A stretch of 64,000 bases of DNA from assembly GCA_964016885.1 (NCBI GenBank), contig OZ024742.1, positions 277,946,001 to 278,010,000 of the forward strand. The letters run 5' to 3'. Source of the stretch: Eledone cirrhosa. Taxonomy: Eukaryota. The translations under genes and the position numbers were made by a program. A model generated the notes under the pieces. It did no database searches, was not told the origin of the DNA, and was given only the letters and a program-made list of their open reading frames with translations. This document shows, in pieces, positions 10,982 to 34,080 of the stretch; positions within the stretch are counted from its first letter, which is position 1, and every line of letters begins with the position of its first letter.

Positions 10982-11020
10982 TCGAACAATAATAACCATA
11001 TCTATCTATCTATCTATCTA

Positions 11021-14000
11021 AGGGCCTAACTTCACCCAGGCAGGGGATTTCCCCCACCTCAAAATGATTAAGGCCCCACAGGACACCTATAAAACTTTAA
11101 AAAACAATTTTAAAGAGGACGTGGGTCCCCCCTGCGTCGGGCCCATTAACCGCGTCCTCCTAAAAACTATCCCACCCCCTCCCCAAACACCCTCACAACT
11201 CCAAGCTCCCCAACCACACAACACACTGATGCCCCCACACTTCCACAAACCACCACCCCACCCAACAACCCATCCCCCACCCTAATGGAAATTGTGCAGC
11301 CCGATACCCGGGACGCAGAGAGGTAAGTGCCTTTTCTCTTCACCACCAACATGGCTATGCTAAGAGTAGGCTGTTTAAATGCGCGTGGCCTGGGCTCAAC
11401 TTGGAAGCAAGCAATGCTTCTAAATGACCTCAGGTCACAACGTATAGATGTGATGGTTATTTGCGAGGCCCGGATCAGCAACGTGCGACAGCTGGCCCCC
11501 ACCTTTGATGACTTTGAGATGCACGCATCTCTCTGTCAGCCCGGAGGTGGGGGTGGAGTTGTCGTTCTGCTGCAAAAACATCTGGGTCTCGCAACACAGA
11601 TGGTACATTTGGACCCGGAGGGTCGACTAGTGGTTCTGGACCTTGGCAGTGGTAAAGGCGGAGCGTTTAGGTTGGTAGCCGCCTACGGCCCTTTCGGGTC
11701 AATGCGGCCGGACTTCTTCCATCGTCTGGAGACTTTTCTAGGGACGTCCCGCTCCTTGCTATTAGTGGGGGACTGGAATGGTATCCTAGATGCACGCTGG
11801 GACTACGTAGGGGCCTGCCCCGATAGAGAGGGGTGTAATAGCCTCAAAGGGTTAATCGGTCGATTTGACCTGGCCGATAGATATCGACTAGATTTTCCGA
11901 CTGCGCCAACCTGGACTTGGGCAAATCGTAGCGGATCATCTAGGTCGTACCTAGATAGGTTCTTAGTTAGAATTAAGGATAAGGACTTTTTAAGTTGTCC
12001 AAAAATGCGCATGGTTGGCTATTCAGACCACAAATTAGTGACCTGCATGGTCAACCTTGACAGAACTCATAGACAGGGCCCCGGTTACTGGAAGCTCAAC
12101 TTGTCCTTGCCGGCAAGTAGAGCCTACAGGAATCGGATTAGTACGTTAGTTAAGGAACGGTTGACTGGAGCGATCGTCAACAGCAGGTGGTGGGTATCTC
12201 TAAAGAGAGAGATTAGAGTAGTCTCGATAGAATTTAGTAAGGTTCTAGCTGCGGATAGGAATAGGAAGGAAAGGGAGCTAATAGATAGAGTAGAAGAGGC
12301 AATTAGAAGCGGCGACGTGGCCAGAGTGCTAGCGTCGAGAACGGCTTTGAGCCAGTTTTTCGACGCGAAGCACGAAGGCTGCGTTGTCCGAAGTAAAATA
12401 CGTGATCTAGGGAACGAGGGGACCAAAGCTGTTAGCTGGGCCCGCGTGACAGAGGCCAACAGTGGAACTAAATCCACCATCCGGTCTTTGCGAGACCTGG
12501 ATGGACGGGCGATTCTTGAGCCTAAGCAGATGTGTGAGGCCTTTCAAAGGCACTTTGCCCGACTGTTCGGGAGGGGCGGGGAGCCGGTTGGGGACGTGGA
12601 CTTCGGTCCATACCTCGACGGCCTGCCGCGCCTCTCGGACAGGGAGGCGAAGTCCTGCGAGGAGCCGATTTCGGCCGCTGAGATAGAGGACGTGCTGAGC
12701 CAATGCGGCAAACGCAAATCCCCGGGTCTCGATGGTCTTCCTTACGAATTATATCTAGCTATGCCGGACTTGTTCCCCGATCTCCTCGAGGCGGTCTACT
12801 GCAACTGGCAACAGAACGGGAGAATTCCCTGTACTGTGACCAAGGGCGTAGTCACGCTAGTGAGGAAGGACGAGAACAAGGGGGACGAAATAAGTAACTT
12901 CAGGCCCATAACTCTGCTAAATACAGAGTTACAGATTTTGGCCAAGGTGCTAGCAAAGAGGTTGGCGCTTGTCGTGGGCAACCTGGTGGGAGATGCGCAG
13001 ACATGCGCTATCCCGTCCAGGTCCATCCATGACAACCTCCACCTCATGCGATACATCATAGAGAGGGTTGGGAACGAACCCGGCTTTGGTGGGGCTCTGA
13101 TCAACTTGGATCAATCTAAGGCGTTCGATAGGGTCGACCATGGTTACCTGGATGCGGTGCTAGCGGCGGCAGGCTTCGGACCCGTTTTCAGGGGCTGGAT
13201 CACTGCTATGCACAGCAGCCGCATCTGCTCTAGGGTCAAGGTGAACGGCTACCTCTCGGAGCCGTTCAAAATCGCGCGGTCCATCCGACAAGGGTGCCCT
13301 CTCTCCTCCCTTCTGTATGTGTTGACTCTCGAGCCACTACTGCGGAAGTTGGAGTTGTTGCAGGGCATCCCTTTGGAACCGGGATTGCGGAAAGCGGTGT
13401 CGGCCTACGCCGATGACGTGACAGTAATGGTGTCGACGGCCTCCGAAATCGAGGCGGTCGGCACCTTACTGGAGGAGTACGAAAAGTTCACAGGGGCTAA
13501 GCTGAACCGGGACAAGTCGATCGGTTTGCAACTCGGCACGTGGAGGGGCAGACCGATGCCCTCCGATAGCGTCGTCGGACGCTGGACGGAGGGCCCGGTG
13601 AAGTTGCTCGGGGTCTGGTTCGGACCGGACCTCCAGGTGGTGAAAAACTGGGCGGAGGTTACGAACAGGGTGTCTGCACTGACCCAGAAGTGGGCCAGTT
13701 GCAAACTATCCCTGAAAGGCCGGGCGGAGGTGGCGAACACCTACATAGCGTCCGTCATCTACTACCGCCTGACCGTAGTGCCCTGCCCAAGGGAAACCCT
13801 CACCAAGATGGAGCGCGCGCTCTTCCAATTCCTTTGGAAGAGGCGGGCTCCTATGGTGAGGAGATCCATCTGCTGTCAACACCCTTCGAAAGGAGGGCTG
13901 GGGATGCCGTGGCTAATGATGCGTAAACACGCATTAAGGCTACGGCACCTCTACGTATTCCTCACCGGACAACCGGTGTGGGCCTCGTTTGTGAGACGAA

Positions 14001-15049
14001 CCTTTCCCAGACTCGTCTCACTCACCGAGCTGCAATCCTGGGTCAAGCAAAGACCGAGAAAACTGGGCGCCTGGCACACTGAGTGTGCCCAGGCGCTCAC
14101 CGCCCTCTGGCAGGCGGATCCGGTTATCAGTGGAGACTCCACCGCAACATTCTATAGAGGGCTGGTACGCAGCAGGTGCGACGACGCCCTCGGAGAAGCC
14201 CTAGACATGGAGGAGGACGAACTGGCCAGCCTGTTCGGTAGGACATTCAGCCCGGGACCTATGGACAACTTCCAGAAGTCCCTGGCCTGGCAGTGCTACC
14301 GAGGGGCTTTACCCGTTCGAGAAAGGCTCTACAGACACGGGCGCCCGGGTAGGGACCCCGCCAAAAAGATCTGTCCCAGATGCGTGTGCGACGAGGAAAC
14401 CGTTGCACACGCATTAGTACACTGCTCGGGCGTAGCCGATCTGTGGGGCTATGTCGAACAACTGCTGTCAAGGGTGGGACCGATCCGGTTGACCACCGAG
14501 TCTATTGTAATGATCAAGCCGCCTCCCCCCTTCAAAGATGAAGCAGAGGCGGTGTTTCTGTGCGTAATAGCCATGGCGAAAGAGGTTGTATGGTGGACGC
14601 GTCTGAAAGGACTGAGGTCGGGCACCTTTCTCTCTGGCCAACAACTGGTCCGTTTCTTCCGATATCATTTCGGAAGAAGGATCAGGATGAAGAGAGAGGT
14701 GCTGCACCCCAGCCGTTTCTATGAAAGATGGGTGAAAGTGGCGAGAATGGCCCGTGTGAATGGGCCTTCACTCTACATCAGACTATAGGTGAGGAAGATG
14801 AAAGACCAAGGGAGCACCCCTTCTCTGTGCTCCTGAGGAGAAGGGTTGCACACTTTTTTCGGGGGTGTGTGCGACCCCCCAAGGCGCCTCCTCTCTATTG
14901 AGGATTTTGTTAAAAATTTTATTTTTTGTTATATCTTATTTTATTTTTATATTTTGTTATTGCCTCCTCCTTATTGAGGACGCCTTTTTGTGTAAACTCC
15001 CCCCTTTGTACTTGTCCCACTTTTGATGCCCTAGTGGCAAATAAAAGAA

Positions 15050-15050
<1 letters not shown>
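11021..15050 (+). mobile_element. Tx1-clade non-LTR retrotransposon, 5'-truncated (copy 1)
   Basis: Near-identical to 16821-20851. Preceded by (TCTA)5 at ~11001-11020 and followed by (TCTA)n at 15051-15121. Confidence 0.95.
11351..14788 (+). CDS. Tx1 ORF2: APE endonuclease, reverse transcriptase and C-terminal zinc finger
   Basis: Motifs LNARGL, GDWN, SYLDRF, YSDH (APE); KSPGLDG, DQSKAFDRV, QGCPLS, YADD (RT); CPRC..EETVAHALVHC. First ATG at 11351; the frame is open from GTG at 11327. Confidence 0.95.
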   Translation: MAMLRVGCLNARGLGSTWKQAMLLNDLRSQRIDVMVICEARISNVRQLAPTFDDFEMHASLCQPGGGGGVVVLLQKHLGLATQMVHLDPEGRLVVLDLGSGKGGAFRLVAAYGPFGSMRPDFFHRLETFLGTSRSLLLVGDWNGILDARWDYVGACPDREGCNSLKGLIGRFDLADRYRLDFPTAPTWTWANRSGSSRSYLDRFLVRIKDKDFLSCPKMRMVGYSDHKLVTCMVNLDRTHRQGPGYWKLNLSLPASRAYRNRISTLVKERLTGAIVNSRWWVSLKREIRVVSIEFSKVLAADRNRKERELIDRVEEAIRSGDVARVLASRTALSQFFDAKHEGCVVRSKIRDLGNEGTKAVSWARVTEANSGTKSTIRSLRDLDGRAILEPKQMCEAFQRHFARLFGRGGEPVGDVDFGPYLDGLPRLSDREAKSCEEPISAAEIEDVLSQCGKRKSPGLDGLPYELYLAMPDLFPDLLEAVYCNWQQNGRIPCTVTKGVVTLVRKDENKGDEISNFRPITLLNTELQILAKVLAKRLALVVGNLVGDAQTCAIPSRSIHDNLHLMRYIIERVGNEPGFGGALINLDQSKAFDRVDHGYLDAVLAAAGFGPVFRGWITAMHSSRICSRVKVNGYLSEPFKIARSIRQGCPLSSLLYVLTLEPLLRKLELLQGIPLEPGLRKAVSAYADDVTVMVSTASEIEAVGTLLEEYEKFTGAKLNRDKSIGLQLGTWRGRPMPSDSVVGRWTEGPVKLLGVWFGPDLQVVKNWAEVTNRVSALTQKWASCKLSLKGRAEVANTYIASVIYYRLTVVPCPRETLTKMERALFQFLWKRRAPMVRRSICCQHPSKGGLGMPWLMMRKHALRLRHLYVFLTGQPVWASFVRRTFPRLVSLTELQSWVKQRPRKLGAWHTECAQALTALWQADPVISGDSTATFYRGLVRSRCDDALGEALDMEEDELASLFGRTFSPGPMDNFQKSLAWQCYRGALPVRERLYRHGRPGRDPAKKICPRCVCDEETVAHALVHCSGVADLWGYVEQLLSRVGPIRLTTESIVMIKPPPPFKDEAEAVFLCVIAMAKEVVWWTRLKGLRSGTFLSGQQLVRFFRYHFGRRIRMKREVLHPSRFYERWVKVARMARVNGPSLYIRL

Positions 15051-15121
<71 letters not shown>

Positions 15122-15339
15122 GTCTCTGGGATGGACACACGCGTATAACTTGCTGAGTAAGTTCTGTTTAAATTTCTATAGAAATTCTTGTCTGATAACT
15201 TTAATTTTTGTACCATTTTGTAGAGGGACTGCCAGGTCAAACTTTGATCTGGTCAGTCTCTCAAAATATTCTACGCCTTTAGGCGAAATAGTTAAAAAAA
15301 AAAAAGTTTTTTCTTGTTGAAAAGTCAATATTTTTTTAA

Positions 15340-17127
15340 ATGGCCGAAGCTTCTTCACCAAAATTCGAAGGAGGAAAGGGGAAGATGAACTTACAGCTTC
15401 CCCCTGCCACTGTCACAGTAGCAGAGGTCAAGAAGATAGGTCAGCCAGAGGAAGAATTCTCTCCACCTGTTAACCGACAACTTGACGTTGCCATGGCAAC
15501 AACCCAAAGAACCAGCAGCAACAGCAACAACAACAACAATGCGACGGACGAAAGCAACACCAATAACAATAACAATAACAACAACAAGACCAATAACGGT
15601 GACAACAACAACAATGATAACAACAACACCACCAACGACAACAACAACACAAACAAACAAAATTTCTCCTTCGCCGAGACGACAAGGAAAACCCTCGACT
15701 ATCTGCCAGTAGATATAACAAAAGCGAAGGAGCTACTGGCGGATGCGAAAAAATATATAGTGTACGGGGAAAATGGTTCATTCACAATCCATTCCCCCCC
15801 GGAACTAAAAAGCCAGAGACTCCTAAACACGGTCATGTTTAGGACAATCTCGAACAAAAGTAAAAAACCAGCTCAACCATCACAGAGCGAGATAGAGCTG
15901 GTTTTAAAAGACGTCATGAAGGACATCACCTTCATTCAGAAGGATAGACTCTACGGGAGTCTATCCATTCTCATGAAGGACAGGGACACAGCAGTGAAAC
16001 TGTCCATCAAACCAATCACATCCACCGCATACACCTTCTACCCTACGTACATGGGTAGAAGAACACAAAAAATAAAAATCCACACCATCCTGCCGATTAT
16101 GGACATATGGTGGGTTTTGACAGGTTTTCTGGACCTGGAGGATGACATGCTGGTGTCCATGGGAAAGGCATCGGGTGACGCGTTCAGTGGAACGAGCCTC
16201 GAACTTGTAGTTCAAATGAGGCCCGAAAGGATCGCCCAGATCCCTGAACGCGTCATACTGGATGATCTAACCTTCATCAACATTACCGTTGAGGGTAGAC
16301 GGCCCTCGTGTTACCTCTGCGGAACCAGAGGTCACCTGAGGGCTGTCTGTCCCCAACTTAATAAGAAAACCCCAATCCTGCCTACACCACCAACAACTGC
16401 ACAACCAACACAATCACCACAACTACCACTACAAAAACAACCACCACAGCTCAAACCAAAACAAAACAATGTCCAATCCATCCCCTCCACTCAAAAAACA
16501 AAAACAATTTCCAAAACACCCGTACCGCAAACACAACCCGAAAATATACCCCTCCCCTCCAACGCGGAAGATGACCGTAGTTCGTCGTCAGACGAGGAGG
16601 AGCACTTCCACACAATCAAAAGAAAAAAAAGAAAACACACCTCAGACACACAAATGAAAAAAACCCCTCCCCAAAACATAACACTGACACCAACACAAAA
16701 GAGCTCACAACAGCAAACAAAAAACACCACACAAAAACAAAAACATGCATACACATACATAAATACAAGAAACAAAAAACTGTTAAACATTGTGTACAAC
16801 AACAATCTAATAAAAACACAAGGGCCTAACTTCACCCAGGCAGGGGATTTCCCCCACCTCAAAATGATTAAGGCCCCACAGGACACCTATAAAACTTTAA
16901 AAAACAATTTTAAAGAGGACGTGGGTCCCCCCTGCGTCGGGCCCATTAACCGCGTCCTCCTAAAAAACTATCCCACCCCCTCCCCAAACACCCTCACAAC
17001 TCCAAGCTCCCCAACCACACAACACACTGATGCCCCCACACTTCCACAAACCACCACCCTACCCAACAACCCATCCCCCACCCTAATGGAAATTGTGCAG
17101 CCCGATACCCGGGACGCAGAGAGGTAA
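15340..17127 (+). CDS. Tx1 ORF1 nucleic-acid-binding protein with CCHC zinc knuckle
   Basis: 595 aa with VEGRRPSCYLCGTRGHLRAVCP knuckle and Asn-rich and Pro/Thr/Gln-rich low-complexity segments. Lies directly upstream of ORF2. Confidence 0.9.
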   Translation: MAEASSPKFEGGKGKMNLQLPPATVTVAEVKKIGQPEEEFSPPVNRQLDVAMATTQRTSSNSNNNNNATDESNTNNNNNNNNKTNNGDNNNNDNNNTTNDNNNTNKQNFSFAETTRKTLDYLPVDITKAKELLADAKKYIVYGENGSFTIHSPPELKSQRLLNTVMFRTISNKSKKPAQPSQSEIELVLKDVMKDITFIQKDRLYGSLSILMKDRDTAVKLSIKPITSTAYTFYPTYMGRRTQKIKIHTILPIMDIWWVLTGFLDLEDDMLVSMGKASGDAFSGTSLELVVQMRPERIAQIPERVILDDLTFINITVEGRRPSCYLCGTRGHLRAVCPQLNKKTPILPTPPTTAQPTQSPQLPLQKQPPQLKPKQNNVQSIPSTQKTKTISKTPVPQTQPENIPLPSNAEDDRSSSSDEEEHFHTIKRKKRKHTSDTQMKKTPPQNITLTPTQKSSQQQTKNTTQKQKHAYTYINTRNKKLLNIVYNNNLIKTQGPNFTQAGDFPHLKMIKAPQDTYKTLKNNFKEDVGPPCVGPINRVLLKNYPTPSPNTLTTPSSPTTQHTDAPTLPQTTTLPNNPSPTLMEIVQPDTRDAER

Positions 17128-17151
17128 GTGCCTTTTCTCTTCACCACCAAC

Positions 17152-20100
17152 ATGGCTATGCTAAGAGTAGGCTGTTTAAATGCGCGTGGCCTGGGCTCAA
17201 CTTGGAAGCAAGCAATGCTTCTAAATGACCTCAGGTCACAACGTATAGATGTGATGGTTATTTGCGAGGCCCGGATCAGCAACGTGCGACAGCTGGCCCC
17301 CACCTTTGATGACTTTGAGATGCACGCATCTCTCTGTCAGCCCGGAGGTGGGGGTGGAGTTGTCGTTCTGCTGCAAAAACATCTGGGTCTCGCAACACAG
17401 ATGGTACATTTGGACCCGGAGGGTCGACTAGTGGTTCTGGACCTTGGCAGTGGTAAAGGCGGAGCGTTTAGGTTGGTAGCCGCCTACGGCCCTTTCGGGT
17501 CAATGCGGCCGGACTTCTTCCATCGTCTGGAGACTTTTCTAGGGACGTCCCGCTCCTTGCTATTAGTGGGGGACTGGAATGGTATCCTAGATGCACGCTG
17601 GGACTACGTAGGGGCCTGCCCCGATAGAGAGGGGTGTAATAGCCTCAAAGGGTTAATCGGTCGATTTGACCTGGCCGATAGATATCGACTAGATTTTCCG
17701 ACTGCGCCAACCTGGACTTGGGCAAATCGTAGCGGATCATCTAGGTCGTACCTAGATAGGTTCTTAGTTAGAATTAAGGATAAGGACTTTTTAAGTTGTC
17801 CAAAAATGCGCATTGTTGGCTATTCAGACCACAAATTAGTGACCTGCATGGTCAACCTTGACAGAACTCATAGACAGGGCCCCGGTTACTGGAAGCTCAA
17901 CTTGTCCTTGCCGGCAAGTAGAGCCTACAGGAATCGGATTAGTACGTTAGTTAAGGAACGGTTGACTGGAGCGATCGTCAACAGCAGGTGGTGGGTATCT
18001 CTAAAGAGAGAGATTAGAGTAGTCTCGATAGAATTTAGTAAGGTTCTAGCTGCGGATAGGAATAGGAAGGAAAGGGAGCTAATAGATAGAGTAGAAGAGG
18101 CAATTAGAAGCGGCGACGTGGCCAGAGTGCTAGCGTCGAGAACGGCTTTGAGCCAGTTTTTCGACGCGAAGCACGAAGGCTGCGTTGTCCGAAGTAAAAT
18201 ACGTGCTCTAGGGAACGAGGGGACCAAAGCTGTTAGCTGGGCCCGCGTGACAGAGGCCAACAGTGGAACTAAATCCACCATCCGGTCTTTGCGAGACCTG
18301 GATGGACGGGCGATTCTTGAGCCTAAGCAGATGTGTGAGGCCTTTCAAAGGCACTTTGCCCGACTGTTCGGGAGGGGCGGGGAGCCGGTTGGGAACGTGG
18401 ACTTCGGTCCATACCTCGACGGCCTGCCGCGCCTCTCGGACAGGGAGGCGAAGTCCTGCGAGGAGCCGATTTCGGCCGCTGAGATAGAGGACGTGCTGAG
18501 CCAATGCGGCAAACGCAAATCCCCGGGTCTCGATGGTCTTCCTTACGAATTATATCTAGCTATGCCGGACTTGTTCCCCGATCTCCTCGAGGCGGTCTAC
18601 TGCAACTGGCAACAGAACGGGAGAATTCCCTGTACTGTGACCAAGGGCGTAGTCACGCTAGTGAGGAAGGACGAGAACAAGGGGGACGAAATAAGTAACT
18701 TCAGGCCCATAACACTGCTAAATACAGAGTTACAGATTTTGGCCAAGGTGCTAGCAAAGAGGTTGGCGCTTGTCGTGGGCAACCTGGTGGGAGATGCGCA
18801 GACATGCGCTATCCCGTCCAGGTCCATCCATGACAACCTCCACCTCATGCGATACATCATAGAGAGGGTTGGGAACGAACCCGGCTTTGGTGGGGCTCTG
18901 ATCAACTTGGATCAATCTAAGGCGTTCGATAGGGTCGACCATGGTTACCTGGATGCGGTGCTAGCGGCGGCAGGCTTCGGACCCGTTTTCAGGGGCTGGA
19001 TCACTGCTATGCACAGCAGCCGCATCTGCTCTAGGGTCAAGGTGAACGGCTACCTCTCGGAGCCGTTCAAAATCGCGCGGTCCATCCGACAAGGGTGCCC
19101 TCTCTCCTCCCTTCTGTATGTGTTGACTCTCGAGCCACTACTGCGGAAGTTGGAGTTGTTGCAGGGCATCCCTTTGGAACCGGGATTGCGGAAAGCGGTG
19201 TCGGCCTACGCCGATGACGTGACAGTAATGGTGTCGACGGCCTCCGAAATCGAGGCGGTCGGCACCTTACTGGAGGAGTACGAAAAGTTCACAGGGGCTA
19301 AGCTGAACCGGGACAAGTCGATCGGTTTGCAACTCGGCACGTGGAGGGGCAGACCGATGCCCTCCGATAGCGTCGTCGGACGCTGGACGGAGGGCCCGGT
19401 GAAGTTGCTCGGGGTCTGGTTCGGACCGGACCTCCAGGTGGAGAAAAACTGGGCGGAGGTTACGAACAGGGTGTTTGCACTGACCCAGAAGTGGGCCAGT
19501 TGCAAACTATCCCTGAAAGGTCGGGCGGAGGTGGCGAACACCTACATAGCGTCCGTCATCTACTACCGCCTGACCGTAGTGCCCTGCCCAAGGGAAACCC
19601 TCACCAAGATGGAGCGCGCGCTCTTCCAATTCCTTTGGAAGAGGCGGGCTCCTATGGTGAGGAGATCCATCTGCTGTCAACACCCTTCGAAAGGAGGGCT
19701 GGGGATGCCGTGGCTAATGATGCGTAAACACGCATTAAGGCTACGGCACCTCTACGTATTCCTCACCGGACAACCGGTGTGGGCCTCGTTTGTGAGACGA
19801 ACCTTTCCCAGACTCGTCTCACTCACCGAGCTGCAATCCTGGGTCAAGCAAAGACCGAGAAAACTGGGCGCCTGGCACACTGAGTGTGCCCAGGCGCTCA
19901 CCGCCCTCTGGCAGGCGGATCCGGTTATCAGTGGAGACTCCACCGCAACATTCTATAGAGGGCTGGTACGCAGCAGGTGCGACGACGCCCTCGGAGAAGC
20001 CCTAGACATGGAGGAGGACGAACTGGCCAGCCTGTTCGGTAGGACATTCAGCCCGGGACCTATGGACAACTTCCAGAAGTCCCTGGCCTGGCAGTGCTAC

Positions 20101-20589
20101 CGAGGGGCTTTACCCGTTCGAGAAAGGCTCTACAGACACGGGCGCCCGGGTAGGGACCCCGCCAAAAAGATCTGTCCCAGATGCGTGTGCGACGAGGAAA
20201 CCGTTGCACACGCATTAGTACACTGCTCGGGCGTAGCCGATCTGTGGGGCTATGTCGAACAACTGCTGTCAAGGGTGGGACCGATCCGGTTGACCACCGA
20301 GTCTATTGTAATGATCAAGCCGCCTCCCCCCTTCAAAGATGAAGCAGAGGCGGTGTTTCTGTGCGTAATAGCCATGGCGAAAGAGGTTGTATGGTGGACG
20401 CGTCTGAAAGGACTGAGGTCGGGCACCTTTCTCTCTGGCCAACAACTGGTCCGTTTCTTCCGATATCATTTCGGAAGAAGGATCAGGATGGAGAGAGAGG
20501 TGCTGCACCCCAGCCGTTTCTATGAAAGATGGGTGAAAGTGGCGAGAATGGCCCGTGTGAATGGGCCTTCACTCTACATCAGACTATAG
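17152..20589 (+). CDS. Tx1 ORF2: APE endonuclease, reverse transcriptase and zinc finger
   Basis: Same motifs as copy 1, uninterrupted, with about six amino-acid differences from copy 1. Confidence 0.95.
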   Translation: MAMLRVGCLNARGLGSTWKQAMLLNDLRSQRIDVMVICEARISNVRQLAPTFDDFEMHASLCQPGGGGGVVVLLQKHLGLATQMVHLDPEGRLVVLDLGSGKGGAFRLVAAYGPFGSMRPDFFHRLETFLGTSRSLLLVGDWNGILDARWDYVGACPDREGCNSLKGLIGRFDLADRYRLDFPTAPTWTWANRSGSSRSYLDRFLVRIKDKDFLSCPKMRIVGYSDHKLVTCMVNLDRTHRQGPGYWKLNLSLPASRAYRNRISTLVKERLTGAIVNSRWWVSLKREIRVVSIEFSKVLAADRNRKERELIDRVEEAIRSGDVARVLASRTALSQFFDAKHEGCVVRSKIRALGNEGTKAVSWARVTEANSGTKSTIRSLRDLDGRAILEPKQMCEAFQRHFARLFGRGGEPVGNVDFGPYLDGLPRLSDREAKSCEEPISAAEIEDVLSQCGKRKSPGLDGLPYELYLAMPDLFPDLLEAVYCNWQQNGRIPCTVTKGVVTLVRKDENKGDEISNFRPITLLNTELQILAKVLAKRLALVVGNLVGDAQTCAIPSRSIHDNLHLMRYIIERVGNEPGFGGALINLDQSKAFDRVDHGYLDAVLAAAGFGPVFRGWITAMHSSRICSRVKVNGYLSEPFKIARSIRQGCPLSSLLYVLTLEPLLRKLELLQGIPLEPGLRKAVSAYADDVTVMVSTASEIEAVGTLLEEYEKFTGAKLNRDKSIGLQLGTWRGRPMPSDSVVGRWTEGPVKLLGVWFGPDLQVEKNWAEVTNRVFALTQKWASCKLSLKGRAEVANTYIASVIYYRLTVVPCPRETLTKMERALFQFLWKRRAPMVRRSICCQHPSKGGLGMPWLMMRKHALRLRHLYVFLTGQPVWASFVRRTFPRLVSLTELQSWVKQRPRKLGAWHTECAQALTALWQADPVISGDSTATFYRGLVRSRCDDALGEALDMEEDELASLFGRTFSPGPMDNFQKSLAWQCYRGALPVRERLYRHGRPGRDPAKKICPRCVCDEETVAHALVHCSGVADLWGYVEQLLSRVGPIRLTTESIVMIKPPPPFKDEAEAVFLCVIAMAKEVVWWTRLKGLRSGTFLSGQQLVRFFRYHFGRRIRMEREVLHPSRFYERWVKVARMARVNGPSLYIRL

Positions 20590-20850
20590 GTGAGGAAGAT
20601 GAAAGACCAAGGGAGCACCCCTTCTCTGTGCTCCTGAGGAGAAGGGTTGCACACTTTTTTCGGGGGTGTGTGCGACCCCCCAAGGCGCCTCCTCTCTATT
20701 GAGGATTTTGTTAAAAATTTTATTTTTTGTTATATCTTATTTTATTTTTATATTTTGTTATTGCCTTCTCCTTATTGAGGACGCCTTTTTGTGTAAACTC
20801 CCCCCTTTGTACTTGTCCCACTTTTGATGCCCTAGTGGCAAATAAAAGAA

Positions 20851-20887
<37 letters not shown>

Positions 20888-21054
20888 AATTCCTGTCTCT
20901 ATGTCTTTCTACTTGTCTGTTCATAGTTTTCTGTTTATGCATCTATCTATATATAAGAACAACAATATCAACTACAAAGCAGAAATCTCAATACCAGTTG
21001 TAAAATAGACAGATAAATATTGATAGATGAATATATAGATGTTAGATTGATAAA

Positions 21055-22879
21055 TTTCTTTATTAAACACAAGGGCACAAAAGAAGGGGACAAATACAAA
21101 TGGGGAGTTTACATGCAGGTATATGAAAATAAAACTATTAATAAAATAACAAATAACAATTGAAATCCCCAATAGGGTGGGAGGTGTTACACAGGGGTTA
21201 TACACATCCCAAGAGTGAGTACTCCCTTCCTCTCTTCTTCTTTTTCCTCAACATACAGGCTTATATAGAGAGAAGGCCCAACCACTCGGGCCATCTTTGC
21301 CACATTTACCCACCTTTTATAAAATTTGCTGGGGTACAGCACCTTTCTCTCCATCCTGATTCTTCTTCCAAAATGATATTTGAAAAAACGAATCAGTTGC
21401 TCGCCTGAGAGAAAGGTGTCTGACCTCAGCCCTTTTAACCTCGTCCACCATATAACCTCTTTCACCATAGCCATAGCACATAGGAAAACCACCTCCCCTC
21501 GTTTTTGAAAGAGGGTGGCGGTTTGATCATGACAATGGACTCGGTGGTCAACTGGATTGGTCCCACCCGCGACAATAGCCCTACAGGTCGGTAACGCCCG
21601 GGCAGTGTACAAATGCGTGCGCGACGGTTTCCTCGTCGCGCACGCATCTCAGACAGATCTTTTTCGAAGGGTCCCTACCCGGGCGCCCGAGTCGGTAGAG
21701 CTTGTCTCGAACTGGTAGAGCTCCTCGGTAGCACTGACAGGCCAGGGACTTTTGGAAGTTGTCCATTGGTCCCGGGCGGAAGGTCCTACCGAACAGATTG
21801 GCCAGTTCGTCCTCCTCTACGCCTAGAGTTTCTCCAAGCGTGTCGTCGCACTTGCTGAGGACCAACCCTCTATAGAATGTCGAAGTGGAGTCTCCACTGA
21901 TCGCCGGGTCCGTTTGCCAGAGGACTGTGAGCGCCTGACCACATTCGATGTGCCAGTCGCCGATTTTCCTCGGTCTTTGCTTGACCCAGGACTGCAGCTC
22001 GGTCAGCGAAACGAGTCGTGGGAAGGCTCGCCTCACGAACGGGGCCCACACCGGTTGTCTGGTGAGGAATACGCGGAGGTGCCGCGGCCTGAGCGCGTGT
22101 TTGTGCATCATCAGCCACGGCATCCCCAGCCCTCCGTTTGAGGGGTGTTGGCAGCAGATGGATCTTCTCACCAAAGGAGCCCGTTTCTTACAAAGGAATT
22201 GGAAGAGCGCAAGCTCCATTTTGGTGAGCGTTTTGGCTGGACAAGGCACGACGGTCAAGCGGTAGTAGATGACGGACGCTATAAAAGTGTTCGCCACCTC
22301 CGCTCGACCTTTCAAGGATAGTTTGCACTCAGCCCACTTCTGGGTGAGCTCAAACACTTTGGCCGTCACCTCGTTCCAGTTTTTCTCCACCTGGAGGTCA
22401 GGACCAAACCAGACCCCGAGCAGCTTTACCGGTCCTTCCGCCCAGCATCCGACAACGCCATCGGAAGGCATCGGTTTGCCTCTCCACGTTCCGAGTTGCA
22501 AACCGACGGATTTGGCCCGTTTCAGCTTCGCTCCTGTGTACCTTTCGTATTCCACTAGTAAGGTGCCGACCTCCCCGATTTGCGAGGTGCTGCTCGACAC
22601 CATTACTGTCACGTCGTCGGCGTAGGCCCACGCCGCTTTTCGCAGTCCCGGTTCCAAAGGGATGCCCTGCAATAGCTCCAACTTCCGCAGTAGTGGCTCG
22701 AGAGTCAGTACGTACAGAAGGGAGGAGAGAGGGCATCCCTGTCGGATGGATCACGTGATATGGAACGGCTGCCAGAGGTAGCCGTTCACCTTGACCCTTG
22801 AGCAGATGTTGCTGCTGTGCACTGCAGCAATCCAACCCCTGAACACGGGTCCGAAGCCTGCCGCCTCGAGCACCGTATC
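21055..22879 (-). pseudogene. Tx1 element of a related subfamily, 5'-truncated and frameshifted (copy 3)
   Basis: Minus-strand ORFs 21581-22681 and 21187-21612 align to the ORF2 RT and C-terminus. 5' junction abuts GATAGATAGATAGAT at 22881-22895; degenerate TCTA tail. Confidence 0.9.
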
Positions 22880-23963
22880 AGATAGATAGATAGATCATAG
22901 TTTAGTGGATAATGTTCAAGATAGAAAGTGATTAGGGAAGAGGCGTGAAGAGCTAAATCAGGTAAGAGAAAGTGATATTAGAAAAAGCATGCAGTATATA
23001 TTATAAGAAAAAGCATGCAGTGTTGTAATTATATTTAGTTTAAATTTCCTCTATAACCACATATTTCAGAAATAGCTTGTCCATGTTCTTAAAAAAATTC
23101 AAATGAGTCCAAAAATTAACTACATTTCACCATTGTTCAAAGAATACACAAAACGTGTCTATATTTCGAAGTGCCAATTTAAAGACAAAGAACAAAAAAA
23201 AAAAAACGCTAACAATATCGTCTGTCAACTACTGGTATTGTTACGTTTCCTGTACTTCAAAAGTTGGGATCATTCGAATTAACGCACATGGTATCGAGGC
23301 AGCACAAACGAAGAGACAAAATACTCTCAGATAGAACAGTGTGTCTTTTGAACTAAATACACAAATAAAAAACAAAAAAAATGTACGTGAACCCGAGGTG
23401 CAACAAGTGAAAACGAACAGAAATGCAACAAGATGCAATATGCAACAACATGTCCACGAGAAAATCGAGAGAAAAAAATAATAATAAATAGGCATACGGA
23501 CGAGTAAGAATGATAGCAGCAGAGTGAGACAGCAGGACTTGGTGGTCATATGATGTCAAGAAAGTAGAAGGGAGAAGAATTAATAGAAAGAGATAGAGGG
23601 AAGGGATGGGGGTGTTAGACAGAGATAGGGGAAGAAAAAGAGAGAGGAAGAAGAGGTGGAAAAGAATGAGTTCATAGGTGGTGTATTTTAGATAGAAGTG
23701 AAAAAGGCCTGCGTTGGCTAAAAGGCAACAATAAATCTGATTCACACACACAGCTGATTTACAACGTCTTTGGCGCAAGTAACAGTTGTATACCTGCCTT
23801 TGTATTGGACTGATTGGACCAGAATGGCGTTTTAACATGAAAGTAATAAAAATGTTTTATTGTAGAAAATGCAATTGTCTTTTGTGGTTATCAAAACGGA
23901 AAAGGAAGGGAAAGGCAAGTGCTCTTGGGGCACAGAAAAATAGGAGGCTTATAGTCTCTAGGC

Positions 23964-25315: not shown

Positions 25316-25362
<47 letters not shown>

Positions 25363-25363
25363 C

Positions 25364-25419
<56 letters not shown>

Positions 25420-25513
25420 TGTGTATATATATGTGTGTATATATATGTGTGTATATATATGTGTGTATATATATATATGTGTATATATATATATGTGTAT
25501 ATATATATATGTG

Positions 25514-25547
<34 letters not shown>

Positions 25548-25551
25548 TAAT

Positions 25552-25618
<67 letters not shown>

Positions 25619-25620
25619 AA

Positions 25621-25830
25621 GGCGTGTGGCTAAGTGGTTAGAGAATTGGATTCACAATCTTGAGGTTGTGAGTGCGATTCTTGGACCGAGCGATGCGTTA
25701 TGCCCTTGAGCAAGACACTTTATATCACGTTGCTCCTTCTACCTGGAGTTGCGACCGGTAGATAGTACTAGCAACTGGAAAGACCGACGAAAACATTGTT
25801 TCCTCGGTCCGATTTGACGAAAGTTGATCG
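25621..25830 (+). mobile_element. tRNA-derived SINE family B (CORE-like block)
   Basis: Head GGCGTGTGGCTAAGTGGTTAG with a B-box-like segment, then CCTTGAGCAAGACACTT. A reverse copy lies at 41412-41624. Confidence 0.85.
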
Positions 25831-25867
25831 ATATATATATATATATATATAAATATATATATATAAA

Positions 25868-26832: not shown

Positions 26833-27011
26833 AGGTCTCCAAGGTGTACAGCCTCTCGTCGATAGCGCCAATGTAGGTAAGGGAAATATATATATATATA
26901 TATATGTGTGTATATGCATATTTATTTATGTATGTATGTTCCGGTTTTATAATTTCACAAATGTTTGCCAATAGAGAGAGAGTCGATTTCTAACATGTAT
27001 ACAAGACTCTC

Positions 27012-27397
27012 TCATTGGAAAGTTTTACACATTTTTACTGTTCCATTAATGGATTGTATTTGTAATTTCCTAACTAGTGTTCTTTCTGTTTCTGTGAAGC
27101 CCAGATTTGTATTGAGGCAGTTACTAACATATCACAGGTATAAATCTGAAAGCATAGTCAGGGTGGAGTATCTGTAGATTTCTCATTAGTTCTACTTAGA
27201 TGTCCTCCTTTTCTCTAATCTTTAATACTATATTGGAATCTGCTGGGCTGCTAACTACTGTGAATGTTTTCTTATCCCTGCCCCATATCATTATAGCTGG
27301 TCTGTTATGCCTGCATTTTATTGGGGTTTTACTGGAACATTCCACCAGTACTCTTATATTATATATATGTATGTCTTCCACATTGCTGTAACTTTTA
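27012..27397 (-). pseudogene. R4/Dong-like non-LTR retrotransposon RLE domain fragment
   Basis: HNRPAIMIWGRDKKT...PADSNIVLKIREKEDI*VELMRNLQILHPDYAFRFIPVI resembles the R4-clade HNRPD...P.D.N...KE.EK...Y..L pattern. Confidence 0.7.
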
Positions 27398-27471
27398 ATG
27401 TGTATGCATGCATGTATGTACGTATCTATGAATGCATGTATCTGCCTGTCTCTCACTCTCTCTGTATATAT

Positions 27472-28184
27472 ATATAATTGAATATAAAAGAGAGATAAAC
27501 ACAGATATAGACATATATGTGTTCAAATCGTAAGGGACCAGATTCACTAGGGTGAAAAAAATGCTAACTATGAACAATAGGGTTTTCCAGACTCAATTTA
27601 AAAGAATAAATTAAGAAAAAAATACAAACCGAAATTGTGACAACTATCAAACTCCCAGACAGCTTTTGTTAATGCTGTTTCGCAATCTAGTGAAAGGGAA
27701 TTACCAATTCTATTGCTCTTCAGTGTGTGTGGAATTAGTAAACCCTTTACTTCTAAGTATCTTAGCCGACTGAATGGTGTGCGTATATAAAATAACGTAT
27801 ATAAAATAACGCACCAGAACCTAGCGTGTCTCGTAAAACGCATGCTACTAAAAATAGCAGTCACTGACGAGCAATAGAATTGGTAATTCCCTTTCACTAA
27901 ATTGCGAAACAGCATTACCAAAAGCTGTCTGGGTGTTTGATAGTTGTCACAATTTCGGTTTGTATTTGTTTATTAATTTATTCTTTTAAATTGAGTCTGG
28001 CAGTCCCTATTGTTCATAGTTAGTATCTTTATCACCCTAGCGAATCTGGTCCCTTACGATTTGAACACATATATGTATATATCTGTGTTTATCTCTCTTT
28101 AATATTCAATTATATTACACGGCCCATAACATTTTCTTTCCTTGAGCTATTTAATTGTAAGAGACTATTTTGAGTTTCTAACTT
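27472..28184. mobile_element. Fold-back PLE pLTR with a canonical hammerhead on each arm
   Basis: 27472-27725 is inverted relative to 27862-28113, and the right arm extends ~70 bp further. Confidence 0.8.
27858..27935 (+). ncRNA. Type I hammerhead ribozyme motif (GUC site)
   Basis: ca-CTGACGA-GCAAT...ATTGC-GAAA-CAGC...GCTG-TC-tg. Minus-strand twin with CTGAAGA core at 27652-27729. Confidence 0.8.
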
Positions 28185-28201
28185 AATATATACCTTTGAA
28201 A

Positions 28202-28254
<53 letters not shown>

Positions 28255-28255
<1 letters not shown>

Positions 28256-28350
28256 GGTAGAAGGAGCAACGTGAAATAAAGTGTATTTAGTCAAGGAAAT
28301 AAACCTGACGATTGCGAATCCAACCCTCTAACCACTCAGCCACCCGCCTT
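28255..28350 (-). mobile_element. SINE family B fragment with internal deletion
   Basis: Matches the reverse complement of 25621-25745. Confidence 0.7.
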
Positions 28351-28419
28351 CACACACACATATAAATATATATGTATATATAGATATGCACATAGTATCG
28401 GTCTGTCTATCTATACCCG

Positions 28420-28592
28420 ATCGGTAGAGAGTCGGACGCCATGCTTTCCAGCATAGTTACGTCCCTTTACGGTCTGAGTTCAAATCCCGCCGAGGTTAAC
28501 TTTGCCTTTCATCCTTACGGGGTCAATAAAATAAAGTACCAGTAATGTACTGGGTAATTGCTGGCCTTGTGCCAAAAGTAGAAACAATTATT
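28420..28592 (+). mobile_element. SINE family A
   Basis: Same body and 3' end as the 6346 copy. Confidence 0.85.
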
Positions 28593-28720
28593 TATTGCTT
28601 TATCTAGCTATCTTTCTAACTATTTTTTTTATCTATCTATCTGTCTATTTATATGAAGGTTTTATTATTCTAAAACACGATTTGTGAATTTTAAAAAATT
28701 CACTTTTGTGTCATGACGCC

Positions 28721-28778
<58 letters not shown>

Positions 28779-28779
28779 A

Positions 28780-28836
<57 letters not shown>

Positions 28837-28837
<1 letters not shown>

Positions 28838-29126
28838 AAGTGGCGAGAATGGCCCGAGTGAATGGGCCTTCTCTCTATATCAGCCTGTAGATTGAGGAAA
28901 AGGAGGAGGAGAGGAAAGGAGTACAAGCTCTTCGTACTCCTGGAGATGAGGGTTGCACATTTTTTCGGGGGTATGTGTTACCCATATAAACTGTCTCCCT
29001 CTATTGGGGAAAATCGACTAACTTTTAAATTCCATCTGTGATAACATTTTACACGTTTTTATTGTATGTAAACTTCCCCCTTTGTATTTGTCCCCTTCTT
29101 TTGTGCCCCTGTGGCTAATAAAGAAA
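28837..29126 (+). mobile_element. Tx1 3'-end fragment (copy 4)
   Basis: KVARMARVNGPSLYISL* plus 3' UTR, lying between (TCTA)n at 28721-28837 and 29130-29165. Confidence 0.9.
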
Positions 29127-29127
29127 T

Positions 29128-29159
<32 letters not shown>

Positions 29160-29165
29160 CTATCT

Positions 29166-32100
29166 TTCTGCCTGACGCGTGGAATATCGCCGGTAAGGTT
29201 TTTTGTAAATTTATATACGAAAAACAGAACAAATTGTTTGAAAAAACATATTATTTCGTAGATTAACCCCCAAGCTGAATTGTCAGCTGGGTGCTAATCC
29301 CATTTTTCGCCCCTCTAGGGACGAAAATTTTATTTTAAAAATTGCTTTAAAATATCAAATTTTACAAACTATATAACTTGAACAACACAAAAACGCTGGA
29401 GAACGTCAATAGAGAAAAGAGAGAGAAAGAGGCAGATATTAACGTTATATCTGCTTCTGCTACTATGGACGTCGTCATAGATACGACTGTCAACAAAGAG
29501 GAAAAAATGTTACCACTCGAAAATTGTACAATTTCTACCGTCGAAGCGGAGAAAAATAACACTAACACAGAAATTAAACCTATTAACATACATACACATG
29601 AAAAAGACAGCAACAACTACACATAATGTTTCACCTCGTAAAAAAACTGAGATTTCCAACACCGAGGCTAACAACGATAACAACAACAGCAACAGCAACA
29701 CCACACAAATAAAGAAAATGTCTTTCGCTGAAACAGCGAACAAAAAACAAGATTTTATAAATCTTGATATCTCCAATGCAAGAGATATGCTCCAGCAAGG
29801 GAGAAAATTTGTAACTTTCAAAGAAAAAGGTGGGTTTAGAATTAACTCACCCCTTGAAATAAAGGAAGACACAATTCGAAGATCAGTCACCTTTAGGACT
29901 GTGTCAAATTCAAAATATACCCCCAAACATTAACATCTGGTGGATATTGGCTGGCTTCGTAAAGCCAGAAACTGATATGATTCTTTCGACACGAAAATCT
30001 ATTCGACAAAGGTGGGCGGGAAACAGGGCCAACTTTTAAACGACCTTAGGTCACACGGTATGGATGTGATAGCCATCACCGAGTCCAGGATCCACAACAG
30101 GCAGCAACTAACCCCCATCTTCGACAACTTTGAGATCTACGCATCTCTCTGTCAGCCAGGAGGTGGAGGTGGAGTGGCTGTCATGTTTCGGAAGAACCTG
30201 GACGTCGAAGTACAGCAAGTACACTTGGACACGGAGGGTAGACTGGTAGTCCTAGACGTGAACAGTATTGGAGGTAGAGCCTTCAGACTGGTGGCCGTTT
30301 ATGCCCGACCGGGCAATCGCAATCGCAGCCAGACTTCTTTAAGCGTCTAGAGTCTTTTCTGGGAACGTCTCGCTCCTTACTTTCAGTAGGGGACTGGAAT
30401 GGTATCCTAGATGCACGATGGGACTATATGGGAGCATGTCCCAGTAGAGCGGGGTGCAACAGCCTCAAAACTTAAATCGGCCGATTCCAACTGGCCGATA
30501 GGTATCGACTGGATTTCCCGACTGTACCACAGTGGACGTGGGCAAACCGCAGTGGGACATCTAGATCGTGTTTAGATAGGTTCTTCATTAGAGAAAGGGA
30601 CAAGGAGATGTTAAGCTGTCCACGAATGCACATGGTTGTTGCTATTCAGATCACAAATTAGCCGTCTGCTTAATCAACCGTGATAGAACACATAGACAGG
30701 GACCCGGATACTGGAAGCTGAACCTGTCGTTGCCGGCACGTAAAGCTTACACTGAACGGATAAGTAGACTAGTCAAGCAACAGTTAACGGGAGCCATCGT
30801 CAACAATAGATGGTGGTACTCTCTCAAGAAAGCAATTAGAATAGAATCGATAGGGTATAGCAGAGAGTTAGCTTTAGAGAAAAACAGAATAGAAAGAGAA
30901 CTAGTAGCCAAGGTAGAGGAGCCACTTAGATGTGGCAACGCGGCTAGAGTGTTAGCGTCGAGAACGACACTGGGCCAGTTCTTCGATGCGAAACACGAAG
31001 GTTGCGTGGTCAGAAGCAAAACACGTGCTCTAGGAAACGAAGGAGCGAAAGCTGTCAGCTGGGCCCGAGTGGCGGAGGCAAAAAGAGGCAACAAGTCCAC
31101 GATTCGGTCTTTGAAAGACCAAAACGGATGCGTGCTATTTGACCCCAAGTAAATGTGCGCGGCCTTTCAGCAGCACTTTGCGCAACTGTTTGAGCAGAAC
31201 GACTGTGAGCCGAACGTAGCAATGGACTTTAGTTCATACCTCGACGGCCTGCCGCGTCTCTCGAACACGGACACCGAGTTCTGCGAAAGACCGATCACGG
31301 ACCATGAGATATGGGGCGCTCTGGATCGCTGCGGGAAACGCAAGTCACCCGGTCTAGATGGTCTACCCTATGAGTTTTACAAGGCATGCCGGACTTTTTA
31401 TCTGGCGTCCTCGAAGCCATCTACTGCAATTGGCAGCAGAACGGGAGAATTCCCAGTTCTGCAGGCAAGGGCGTAGTAACACTGATGAGGAAAGACGAGA
31501 ACAAGGGGTACGAAATTAACAACTTCAGGCCCCTAACTCTGCTCAACACAGAGTTAAAGATTTTGGCCAAGGTGCTAGCGACGAGGTTGGCGCTTGTCGT
31601 CGAGAACCTGGTAGGGAAAGCGCAAACGTGTGCAATCCCGACCAGGTCCATACACGACAACCTCCACCTCATGCGATACATCATAGAGAGGGTGGGTAGT
31701 AAACCCGGCTTGCGTGATGCTCTGATCAATTTGGATCAGTCTAAGGCATTCGATAGGGTCGACCATCGATACTTGGAAGCGGTTCTCAAGGTGGCCGGTT
31801 TCGGTCCCGTGTTCAGATTCTGGATCAAGGCGATGCACACCAGCATCTGCTCGAGGGTCAAGGTGAACGTCTACCTATCGGAGCCATTCGCAATCACGCG
31901 TTCCATTGGACAGGGCTGCCCTCTCTCCTCCATTCTGTATGTATTGACTCTAGAGCCACTACTGCGGAAATTGGAGCTGTTGCAGGGCCACCCTCTAGAA
32001 CCGGGACTGCGCAAAGCGGCGTCGGCTTATGCAGACAACGTGACGGTAATGGTGTCGAGCACCTCGGAAATAGGGGTGATAGGCAACTTACTGAAAGAAT

Positions 32101-33580
32101 ACGAAACGCTGACGGGAGCAAAACTAAATCCGGACAAGTCTGTCGGCTTGCAACTCGGTATGTGGAGAGGTAAACCGATGACGTCCGACAGCGTCGTTGG
32201 ACGCTGGACGGAAGGACCGGTGAAATTGCTCGGAGTCTGGTTCGGTTCAGACCTCCAGGTGGAGAAAAACTGGAACGAGGTCACGGCCAGGGTGTTTGCA
32301 CTCACCCAGAAATGGGCAGAGTGCAAACTGTCCTTGAAAGGTCGAGCGGAGGTGGCGAACACTTTCATAGCGTCCGTCATCTACTACCGCTTGACTGTCG
32401 TGCCTTGTCCCCGTGAACATCTCGCCAAGATGGAACGCATGCTCTTCCAGTTTCTGTGGAAGAAGCAGGCTCCGCTGGTGAGGAGATCCGTCTGCTGTCA
32501 GCACCCTTCCAACGGAGGGCTGGGAATGCCGTGGATGATGATGCGCAAACATGCGCTGAGGCTGCGGCATCTCCAGGTATTCCTCACCGACCCCCAACAG
32601 GTGTGGGCACCGTTTGTGAGACAGCCTTTCGCACAGCTCGTCTCGCTGACGGAGCTGCAGTCCTGGGTCTAGAAAAGACCGAAAACGATGGGCGCCTGGC
32701 ACATTGAATGCGCTCAGACGCTCACAGTCCTCTGGCAAGCGGGCGCAGCAATCAGTGGAGACTCCACTTCGACATTCTATAGAGGGATTGTACGTTACAA
32801 GGGCGACGACGTGCTCGAAGAGACTCTACGCGTCGAAGACGATGAGCTCACCAGCCTGTTTGGTAGGACTTTCCGCCCGGGACCTAGGGACAACTTCCAG
32901 AGGTCCCTGGCCTGGCTGTGCTACCGAGGAGCTCTACCGGTTTGTGACAAGATCTACAGGCACGGACGCTCCGGCAGGGATCCTTCCAAGAGGACGTGTC
33001 CAAGATGCGCACAGGACATTGAAACAGTCCTGCACGCAATTGTACACTGCCCGGGCGTAACCGACCTGTGGAACTATGCAGAACAACTGCTGTCGCGTAT
33101 GGGACAAATCCAGTTGACTGCCGAGTTCATAGTAAGGATCAAACCGCCAGCCTCTTTCAAAAACGAAAGAGAGGTGGTTTTCTTCTGTACGGTGGCTATG
33201 GTGAAAGAAGTTATATGGTGGACGAGGTTGAGAGGACTGAGGACAGATGGCTTTCTCTCCGGACAACAATTGATTCCCTTCTTTAAGTATCACTTTAGAA
33301 GGAGAATCAGAGTGGTGAGAGAGGCACTGCACCCCAGTAAATTTACTGAAAGTAGCCTGTAGGTTGAAGAAAGGAGCACTTGCACAACACGCTCCTGGAG
33401 TTGAGGGTTGTTCTATCGACGGGGTTTTAAACAACCCATTTGTGGAGCCTCCCCCCCTATTGGGGATTTCGATTGTTGTAATTGTTTGTTTTTATATTTT
33501 TTACACGACTGTATGTAAATCCCCGGCATGTCTTTGTATTGTCCCCTTTTCTTGTGCGCCCTTGTGGCAAATAAATAAAT
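29166..33580 (+). pseudogene. Degenerate Tx1 element with 5' UTR, internally deleted ORF1 and disrupted ORF2 (copy 5)
   Basis: ORF1 remnant SFAETANKKQDFINLDI...VTFRTVSN aligns to ORF1 of copy 2. Deletions near 29930 and ~30010. ORF2 has stops and frameshifts, with YADN in place of YADD. Degenerate TCTA tail. Confidence 0.9.
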
Positions 33581-34080
33581 ATATCTAACTATCTATCTTT
33601 CTATCAAACTATCCATCTGTTTATCTATCTCTCACTCACTCCCTGTCTCTCTCTCTATATATATATATTCTGGAAGCTTTATATAAGCAGCGGGATATAT
33701 ATGTAACATAAGGGTATACGTTGACTACTTATATGTAAACATACACACTTATATATATACTTATATATGTGCGTGTATAATATTCTCTGTTTATGCTGAC
33801 GTGCATTCTTATTATTATTCCTTTGCGACTGAACGTTTTTGCATATACTAATGCGTGCATGTGTGGTAAATAAATGTTCATGTTTTACATACTCTCGCAT
33901 TCTTTACTACATCTATGTCCTGTTCTTAAAGAGTTTTATGTCAAATCAATGTATATATATATGTCATGACATACTTAATGTTACCATTATTTCTAACTTG
34001 GGCTTTTAGTGAGAAACATTATCTATGCATATTTATATGCATTGATTAAACCTAAAATTGAGTTGTATATGTGTATTCGA

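Follow-up and report, generated by a model that had tools for sequence, protein, structure and literature searches.

The window analyzed here, a stretch of 64,000 nucleotides (nt) from Eledone cirrhosa (contig OZ024742.1, positions 277,946,001 to 278,010,000), carries five related copies of a retrotransposon lacking long terminal repeats (non-LTR) that we place, on the evidence given below, in the Tx1 clade. A blastn self-comparison of the window, with the whole of copy 2 as the query, found all five copies where the initial annotation had put them (Table 1). Each was said to have (TCTA)n, read in the sense of the element, at its 5' junction, and this is the case: there are 5, 17, 4, and about 29 units at copies 1 to 4, respectively, with the 17 units of copy 2 at 15051-15118, and a tract at 29129-29165 before copy 5. 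The three 5'-truncated copies indeed have TCTA at their breakpoints, and in copy 2, which is full length, none of the three truncation points has a TCTA run. Both tracts common to the two head-to-tail pairs are real. Two further claims held in part. Perfect 3' TCTA tracts are limited to copies 1, 2, and 4; copies 3 and 5 have degenerate versions. The copies were also assigned to several diverged subfamilies; copies 3 to 5 are diverged (78 to 84% identity to copy 2), and copies 1 and 2 belong to one subfamily (99.7% identity over the 3' 4.0 kb, with 10 differences in 4,030 nt). The open reading frame 1 (ORF1) remnant of copy 1 is frameshifted near 11162, and ORF2 of copy 5, with 77.6% nt identity to copy 2, has stops and frameshifts. 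The tails of copies 2 and 3 face each other across about 200 nt (20852-21055), and the intervening TCTA-like tracts are opposite in polarity.

Table 1. Positions of the retrotransposon copies, their junction tracts, and other repeats (window coordinates unless marked as genome)
Feature	Position	Strand	Description
Copy 1 5'-junction tract	11001..11020	+	(TCTA)5, five units
Copy 1	11021..15050	+	5'-truncated within ORF1
Copy 1 ORF2	11351-14788	+	open; 99.5% amino acid identity to copy 2
Tract common to copy 1 3' end and copy 2 5' end	15051..15121	+	(TCTA)17-18
Copy 2	15122..20851	+	full length, 5.73 kb: 5' untranslated region (UTR), ORF1, ORF2, 3' UTR
Copy 2 ORF1 (P0002)	15340..17127	+	595 amino acids; N terminus Asn-rich
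Copy 2 ORF2 (P0001)	17152..20589	+	1145 amino acids: apurinic/apyrimidinic endonuclease (APE), reverse transcriptase (RT), zf-RVT-like C terminus
Copy 2 3' junction	20852..20887	+	(TCTA)9
Copy 3 3' flank	21001..21054	-	degenerate, TCTA-like
Copy 3	21055..22879	-	5' end lost as far as RT; 83.5% identity to copy 2; carries stops and frameshifts
Copy 3 5' junction	22880..22895	-	(GATA)4 on + strand, TCTA in element sense
Copy 4 5' junction	28721..28837	+	about 29 TCTA units, one TA interruption
Copy 4	28838..29126	+	290-nt 3' fragment
Tract common to copies 4 and 5	29127..29165	+	TCTA, interrupted
Copy 5	~29166..33580	+	head unlike that of copy 2; large internal deletion in ORF1
Copy 5 3' flank	33581..33630	+	degenerate, TCTA-like
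Rare 3' junction variant, window	15025-15055, 20826-20856
Rare 3' junction variant, genome	C23:18738710, 18744507
Dispersed repeat family	6347-6500, 8382-8519, 8749-8907, 28420-28592, 34081-34472, 34768-35165	both	found by blastn

ORF1 of copy 2 contains one CX2CX4HX4C (CCHC) knuckle at amino acids 324 to 337 and has no Pfam match. ORF2 matches Exo_endo_phos and RVT_1 in Pfam, and its C terminus matches zf-RVT weakly (24.7 bits, under the Pfam cutoff of 27.5). A CCHC knuckle in ORF1 and a zinc-binding motif at the C terminus of ORF2 are features of Tx1 elements, and copy 2 has both, the second in the form of this weak match. The APE domain was modeled with a predicted local distance difference test score of 91.6; its best structural match is the endonuclease of L1 (L1 EN), with a template modeling (TM) score of 0.81, and N10, E39, D141, N143, D202, D226, and H227 are invariant across 24 aligned sequences. 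Matches in the ESM Atlas were generic APE-RT clusters only, and the remaining ORFs of the window gave nothing meaningful against Pfam. The 3' UTR of copy 2 has AATAAA at 20841-20846, and the element terminates in AATAAAAGAAA, without poly(A).

The element is abundant in the 3.0-Gb assembly that we searched. The 26-nt 3' signature of copies 1 and 2, which defines subfamily A, has 1,959 exact matches, and the last 26 nt of copy 4, which define subfamily B, have 6,025. The 24 best full-length matches, chosen for closeness to copy 2, show 99.6 to 99.8% identity, and both ORFs are open in 21 of them. At least five distinct 5' heads start directly after TCTA tracts, and the four besides that of copy 2 lead into ORF1 homologues with 41 to 59% identity to P0002. 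The target has persisted while the family diversified.

Insertion is strongly biased and oriented toward TATCTAT, yet leaky. We took the first 100 subfamily A matches on contig C1, picked by the 3' signature alone and blind to flank content, and mapped their 5' junctions; 21 copies were full length and 79 were 5' truncated. A flank counted as TCTA when at least three sense units lay no more than 40 nt from the 5' junction. In a first pass, the 79 truncated copies gave 44 TCTA, 6 mixed TCTA/TA, 7 (TA)6+, 2 TA with scattered GA, and 20 other flanks. Four rows were removed, namely a segmental duplicate (L106), a copy with an internal duplication (L071), and two with the junction within an older relative (L142 and L122, the latter formerly among the full-length copies). 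The final 76 truncated copies comprise 44 TCTA, 6 mixed, 9 TA, and 17 other, with none antisense and none in (CA)n. The background of 19,988 windows, from 40 evenly spaced 10-kb stretches, contains 5 TCTA and 893 TA windows. TCTA is thus enriched about 2,300-fold (44/76 versus 5/19,988; Fisher p 7e-108), a rough figure with severalfold uncertainty because the background rests on 5 windows, and TA only 2.7-fold. The tabulated flanks do not refute targeting and bear out the preference of truncated copies for (TCTA)n that was read from the window. Sense TCTA is still present on the 5' side of 23 of the 55 truncated copies without an upstream element. At full-length copies, 5' TCTA is weak evidence of targeting, because such copies can bring extra TCTA units along.

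Genome-wide, NN-TATCTAT follows 1,514 of the 1,959 subfamily A 3' ends (77%) and NN-TATATAT follows 187 (9.5%), while TATATAT is 78 times commoner than TATCTAT in background DNA. The repeat (TA)n makes up 3.0% of bases versus 0.023% for the TCTA repeat and is more than 100 times more abundant. Hence, the absence of copies from (TA)n is true of the window and not of the genome, where 9 of the 76 truncated copies have a (TA)6+ or TA-type 5' junction. Target-specific Tx1 elements have been defined by a target in more than 20% of flanks (PMC4494074; this and the other PMC sources are cited from excerpts); here, the shares are 44 of 76 truncated 5' flanks and 57 of 100 3' flanks. For subfamily B, 30 of the 6,025 loci were read; their 3' junctions were NN-TATCT in 24, TCTATCT in 1, TC-type runs in 4, and otherwise in 1, and at least three TCTA units preceded 7 of the 11 copies whose 5' junction was resolved by eye within 1.5 kb. 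Long tracts of at least 8 units (n = 30, from a search pattern biased against tails) stood without an adjacent copy in 20 cases and with one in 10, and the 20 solitary tracts show that long tracts exist without the element.

The 3' junction reads AAGAAA-NN-TAT in 98 of 100 copies. Poly(A) is found at one junction in 100 (L130, inside a (TAA)n tract); polyadenylation of the RNA directly behind the end of the element can therefore occur. In non-periodic flanks, and also in satellites, exact target-site duplications (TSDs) of 7 to 21 nt start at the junction TAT and recur on the 5' side (for example, at L074, L090, L097, L105, L003, L005, and L016). They extend into non-repeat DNA, and because no 3' TCTA units have been added at these sites, the 3' repeat is target and not an element tail. 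Further copies lie at short TAT(C/A)T motifs of satellites or of unique DNA, and those in satellites include insertions with TSDs. Several copies lie in one satellite, at a TATATTT motif (L105-L107; C1:108.72-108.82 Mb), and five copies with TATATAT junctions cluster within 25 kb (C2:408.675-408.700 Mb). Among the junctions out of register, 73 start at ATCT and one at TATCT, from which we infer a nick between T and A, at the T-A step of the strand that carries GATA. An RNA tail cannot read the bases on the upstream side of this nick; they echo TATC, with T at -4 in 8, A at -3 in 7, and C at -1 in 7 of 11 hand-picked sites, of which three are in degenerate TCTA/CCTA context and L068 and L099 were scored at a further-upstream repeat unit, the junction-proximal unit having T at -1. 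In the background, C precedes TAT(C/A)T in only 6%. Four full-length copies at non-TCTA sites (L003, L005, L016, and L082) have additional TCTA units on the 5' side that are not part of the TSD, which suggests that transcription starts inside the upstream TCTA tract.

How do the tandem arrays arise? A relative lies within about 300 to 400 nt in 57 of the 100 copies (downstream relatives were pooled from blast matches, tail motifs, head clusters, and one case by eye). The TSDs of L053 (11 nt) and L054 (20 nt) copy the flank of the previous element, and the 21-nt TSD of L123 takes in the first bases of the downstream element. Of the 10 sites that distinguish copy 1 from copy 2, four vary across the family, and the two copies therefore come from different sources; a tandem duplication or a same-source template jump is ruled out for this pair by the same differences. 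The nested TSDs and the different haplotypes of copies 1 and 2 indicate that head-to-tail arrays grow by separate sequential insertions, and they uphold the proposal that each insertion preserves a target for the next. A rare 3' junction variant, present in 73 of the 1,959 copies, is shared by the two members in each of two tandem pairs (members about 5.8 kb apart; Table 1), and the window pair nonetheless represents different haplotypes. Perhaps the variant reflects priming inside the 3' end of the older copy or local conversion.

We consider it probable that a recently multiplied Tx1-type lineage inserts in one orientation, mostly in (TATC)n/(GATA)n, likely through a preference of its APE endonuclease. 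The endonuclease would nick the strand that carries GATA, and the T-A step is the most likely position (between T and ATCT on the top strand). The RNA end would pair with the nicked strand via a few bases (UAU, perhaps with read-through UCUA units) and prime reverse transcription without poly(A), and a second-strand cut would then duplicate 7 to 21 nt of the target. The rest is visible in the genome: TCTA is left on both sides of the insertion by the duplication, later copies insert beside earlier ones and form head-to-tail arrays, and near-cognate sites ((TA)n and TAT(C/A)T in satellites) are used at a much lower per-site rate. Some full-length copies also bring extra 5' TCTA units into new sites. 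Several points weigh against this reading. Apart from the rough enrichment value and the selection and scoring of the 11 upstream sites, 13 of the 100 copies have no detectable TSD, and 17 of the 76 truncated copies have no repeat class on the 5' side. No empty allele was seen in four public runs over window positions 10640-11400, with the repeats at 10928-11026 skipped. Moreover, genomic sequence cannot separate endonuclease choice from RNA pairing, and pairing between RNA and target also fits the junctions and is a live rival.

In the RNA-guided version of events, the endonuclease nicks T-A steps loosely, UCUA read-through pairs with the target, and only nicks in the GATA strand prime well. 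The nearly invariant TAT register with almost no poly(A) agrees with this, as do the ends at TATATAT, about 10% of the total. AATAAA stands just before the element end and source copies lie upstream of TCTA, so transcripts would be expected to carry UCUA units; priming by pairing is reportedly known for L1. However, the insertions in (TA)n and satellites lack RNA-copied 3' TCTA units, a homology of 2 to 3 nt suffices there, and the bases upstream of the nick lean to TATC. We therefore regard RNA-dominated choice as unlikely, though the most serious competitor, and think that the better account is probably a leaky preference on the part of the endonuclease, with the register set by short pairing of the RNA.

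A strict specificity of the APE for (GATA)n microsatellites, avoiding (TA)n and other DNA, was the inference of the initial annotation. It would explain the contrast between the TCTA and (TA)n enrichments, the strand specificity, and the lack of any of the 76 truncated copies in (CA)n, but as a strict rule it is contradicted by the truncated copies in (TA)n, by the roughly 1 in 10 copies at TATATAT, and by insertions at TAT(C/A)T motifs in satellites (at single motifs and with TSDs) or in unique DNA; we give it little credence. It is very improbable that there is no targeting at all, with TCTA as a tail made by the element and the arrays formed by template jumps, tandem duplication, or misassembly. 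The extra 5' TCTA units of the four full-length copies, the closeness of relatives, and the rare junction variant in both window copies could be read in this way; yet 5' TCTA persists at truncated copies without an upstream element, a TCTA tail is absent from the 3' side of copies in (TA)n and satellites, family-polymorphic sites distinguish copy 1 from copy 2, and TSDs copy the flank of a neighbor. Random insertion followed by selective retention in repeats, a general explanation for the clustering of transposable elements (TEs) in neutral DNA, can practically be dismissed, because (TA)n is equally neutral and far more abundant yet barely enriched and because the bias is strand specific and is seen in copies 99%+ identical to copy 2.

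A wider picture is doubtful: a hitherto undescribed, still-mobile, octopod-side Tx1 lineage that has kept (GATA)n across at least five diverged families, seeds its own targets, and chooses sites by a two-part code of endonuclease and RNA read-through. If it were true, each insertion would duplicate the repeat and the element would be a main source of the long GATA tracts of the genome, full-length copies would bring TCTA to sites without any, and the two parts of the code would be experimentally separable. GATA microsatellites are in any case tied to a TE here, since at least 10 of 30 long tracts adjoin a copy; the link matters for the origin of GATA repeats and for how they serve as single-locus genetic markers in this group of animals. 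The mechanism of microsatellite-targeting APE retrotransposons has been called poorly understood (PMC3812793), and this family, with its young copies in the thousands, its intact source-like elements, and its insertions at natural off-target sites, is suited to separating endonuclease choice from RNA pairing.

Elsewhere in the window, a degenerate (TA) array of 4.6 kb (40983-45650) ends beside a predicted tRNA-Asp (45579-45650). A dispersed family of 140- to 400-nt repeats, similar in size to short interspersed elements, occurs on both strands (Table 1). Two pairs of inverted repeats are nested (49346-50494/58027-59199, 88%; 52606-52956/55214-55564, 97.7%), and the ORFs near them have no Pfam match.

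The sequence comparisons support the placement of these elements among the APE-RT non-LTR retrotransposons of the Tx1 clade, as annotated. Among named homologues, a protein of Argonauta hians comes closest (67% identity over the RT), which suggests an octopod host. In quick IQ-TREE trees with Shimodaira-Hasegawa-like approximate likelihood ratio test (SH-aLRT) support only, and with P0087 omitted as too short, the query falls together with the Argonauta protein and 18 proteins without a name in one clade (SH-aLRT 100; ORF2 of about 1,150 amino acids). A second tree joins this clade to fish and turtle proteins named TX1 (SH-aLRT 97) and, more broadly, to elements ending in U2 small nuclear RNA (snRNA) (SH-aLRT 96), and separates it from the plant L1-like rows; the fish proteins were named automatically, and the rows comprise no curated Repbase Tx1, Kibi, Koshi, or vertebrate L1. 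The RT is 35 to 38% identical to the TX1-named fish proteins, and a profile scan for outside relatives found only distant ones (23 to 29% identity over long alignments), while a scan with P0154 found none. The Argonauta protein (P0152) and an ENA group at 40% identity are the closest relatives from outside this genome. No tree row was confirmed as Kibi or Koshi; P0349 (BAC82609.1, a Danio pol-like protein) presumably belongs to that series.

Human L1 shares the APE fold and the ORF2 layout (E 3e-48 by phmmer against PDB). Whole-protein similarity is higher to a carp relative (E 7e-103 by pairwise blastp), the two E values coming from different programs. L1 ends in poly(A) and has a weak preference for T-rich sites, whereas the Eledone element has a fixed TAT register and an L1-type end at only 1 of 100 junctions. 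Keno, a U2 snRNA-targeting Tx1 element, belongs to the same larger RT clade, since the U2-ending elements L253 and L259 group there with the query; its target is U2, in contrast to the microsatellite here, and U2 genes were not among the 100 flanks read by eye without an Rfam scan, which held microsatellite, satellite, other copies, and unique DNA. Metagenome Tx1 relatives of the Keno type end in or among U2 snRNA (L253, 4675-4885; L259, 5815-5977; and L268), and the distant relative L260 ends in (AT)27 (4285-4338). Another distant relative, L255, begins with a stretch (1-90) like the 5' end of U1 snRNA; Rfam gave no U1 match.

Waldo and Mino belong to the R1 clade. They target (ACAY)n and (AC)n, respectively (PMC3812793), and SART1 and TRAS1 target telomeric repeats, with a swap of their endonucleases swapping the targets (PMC7265360). 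Like the Eledone element, all four are of the APE type and insert in a set orientation into short tandem repeats; they belong to another clade, and SART1 ends in poly(A), unlike the Eledone element. Our literature search, with Repbase, Dfam, and Fig. 3 and the supplements of PMC4494074 outside its scope, found no Tx1 element with a TATC/GATA target. The excerpts list Waldo, Mino, Kibi, Koshi, and Dong without a GATA target (PMC3812793), add Togen with (TG)n (PMC4640811), report that 13 L1-Tx1 families have recently been active in Octopus vulgaris, with no mention of targets (PMC13282606), and hold nothing further on targets (PMC10294476 and PMC2684134). Figure 3 of PMC4494074 labels the microsatellite targets of Tx1 elements, and it or the supplements may list TATC/GATA; an earlier database description of the family is quite possible.

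Crocodilian Tx1 families prefer (TTCC)n or (TTTC)n (PMC4494074) and thus share with the Eledone family a tetranucleotide target and a preference that is not absolute; the repeat unit differs, as does the group of hosts, and in Eledone intact, near-identical copies make up 21 of the 24 closest. Teleost Kibi and Koshi, of the Tx1 clade, target (TC)n and (TTC)n, respectively (PMC4494074 and PMC3812793). They are likewise non-LTR elements of the APE type whose insertions go into one particular microsatellite, whereas the main target here is (TATC)n/(GATA)n, with a TC-type run at the start of only 4 of 30 subfamily B 3' junctions, and the Eledone element falls in a separate, well-supported clade with the Argonauta protein. 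Hence, a strand-specific tetranucleotide target joins the short list of microsatellite-targeting APE retrotransposons, and the Eledone family is not a new type of element but adds a new target to the microsatellite-targeting Tx1 elements of the Kibi/Koshi kind.

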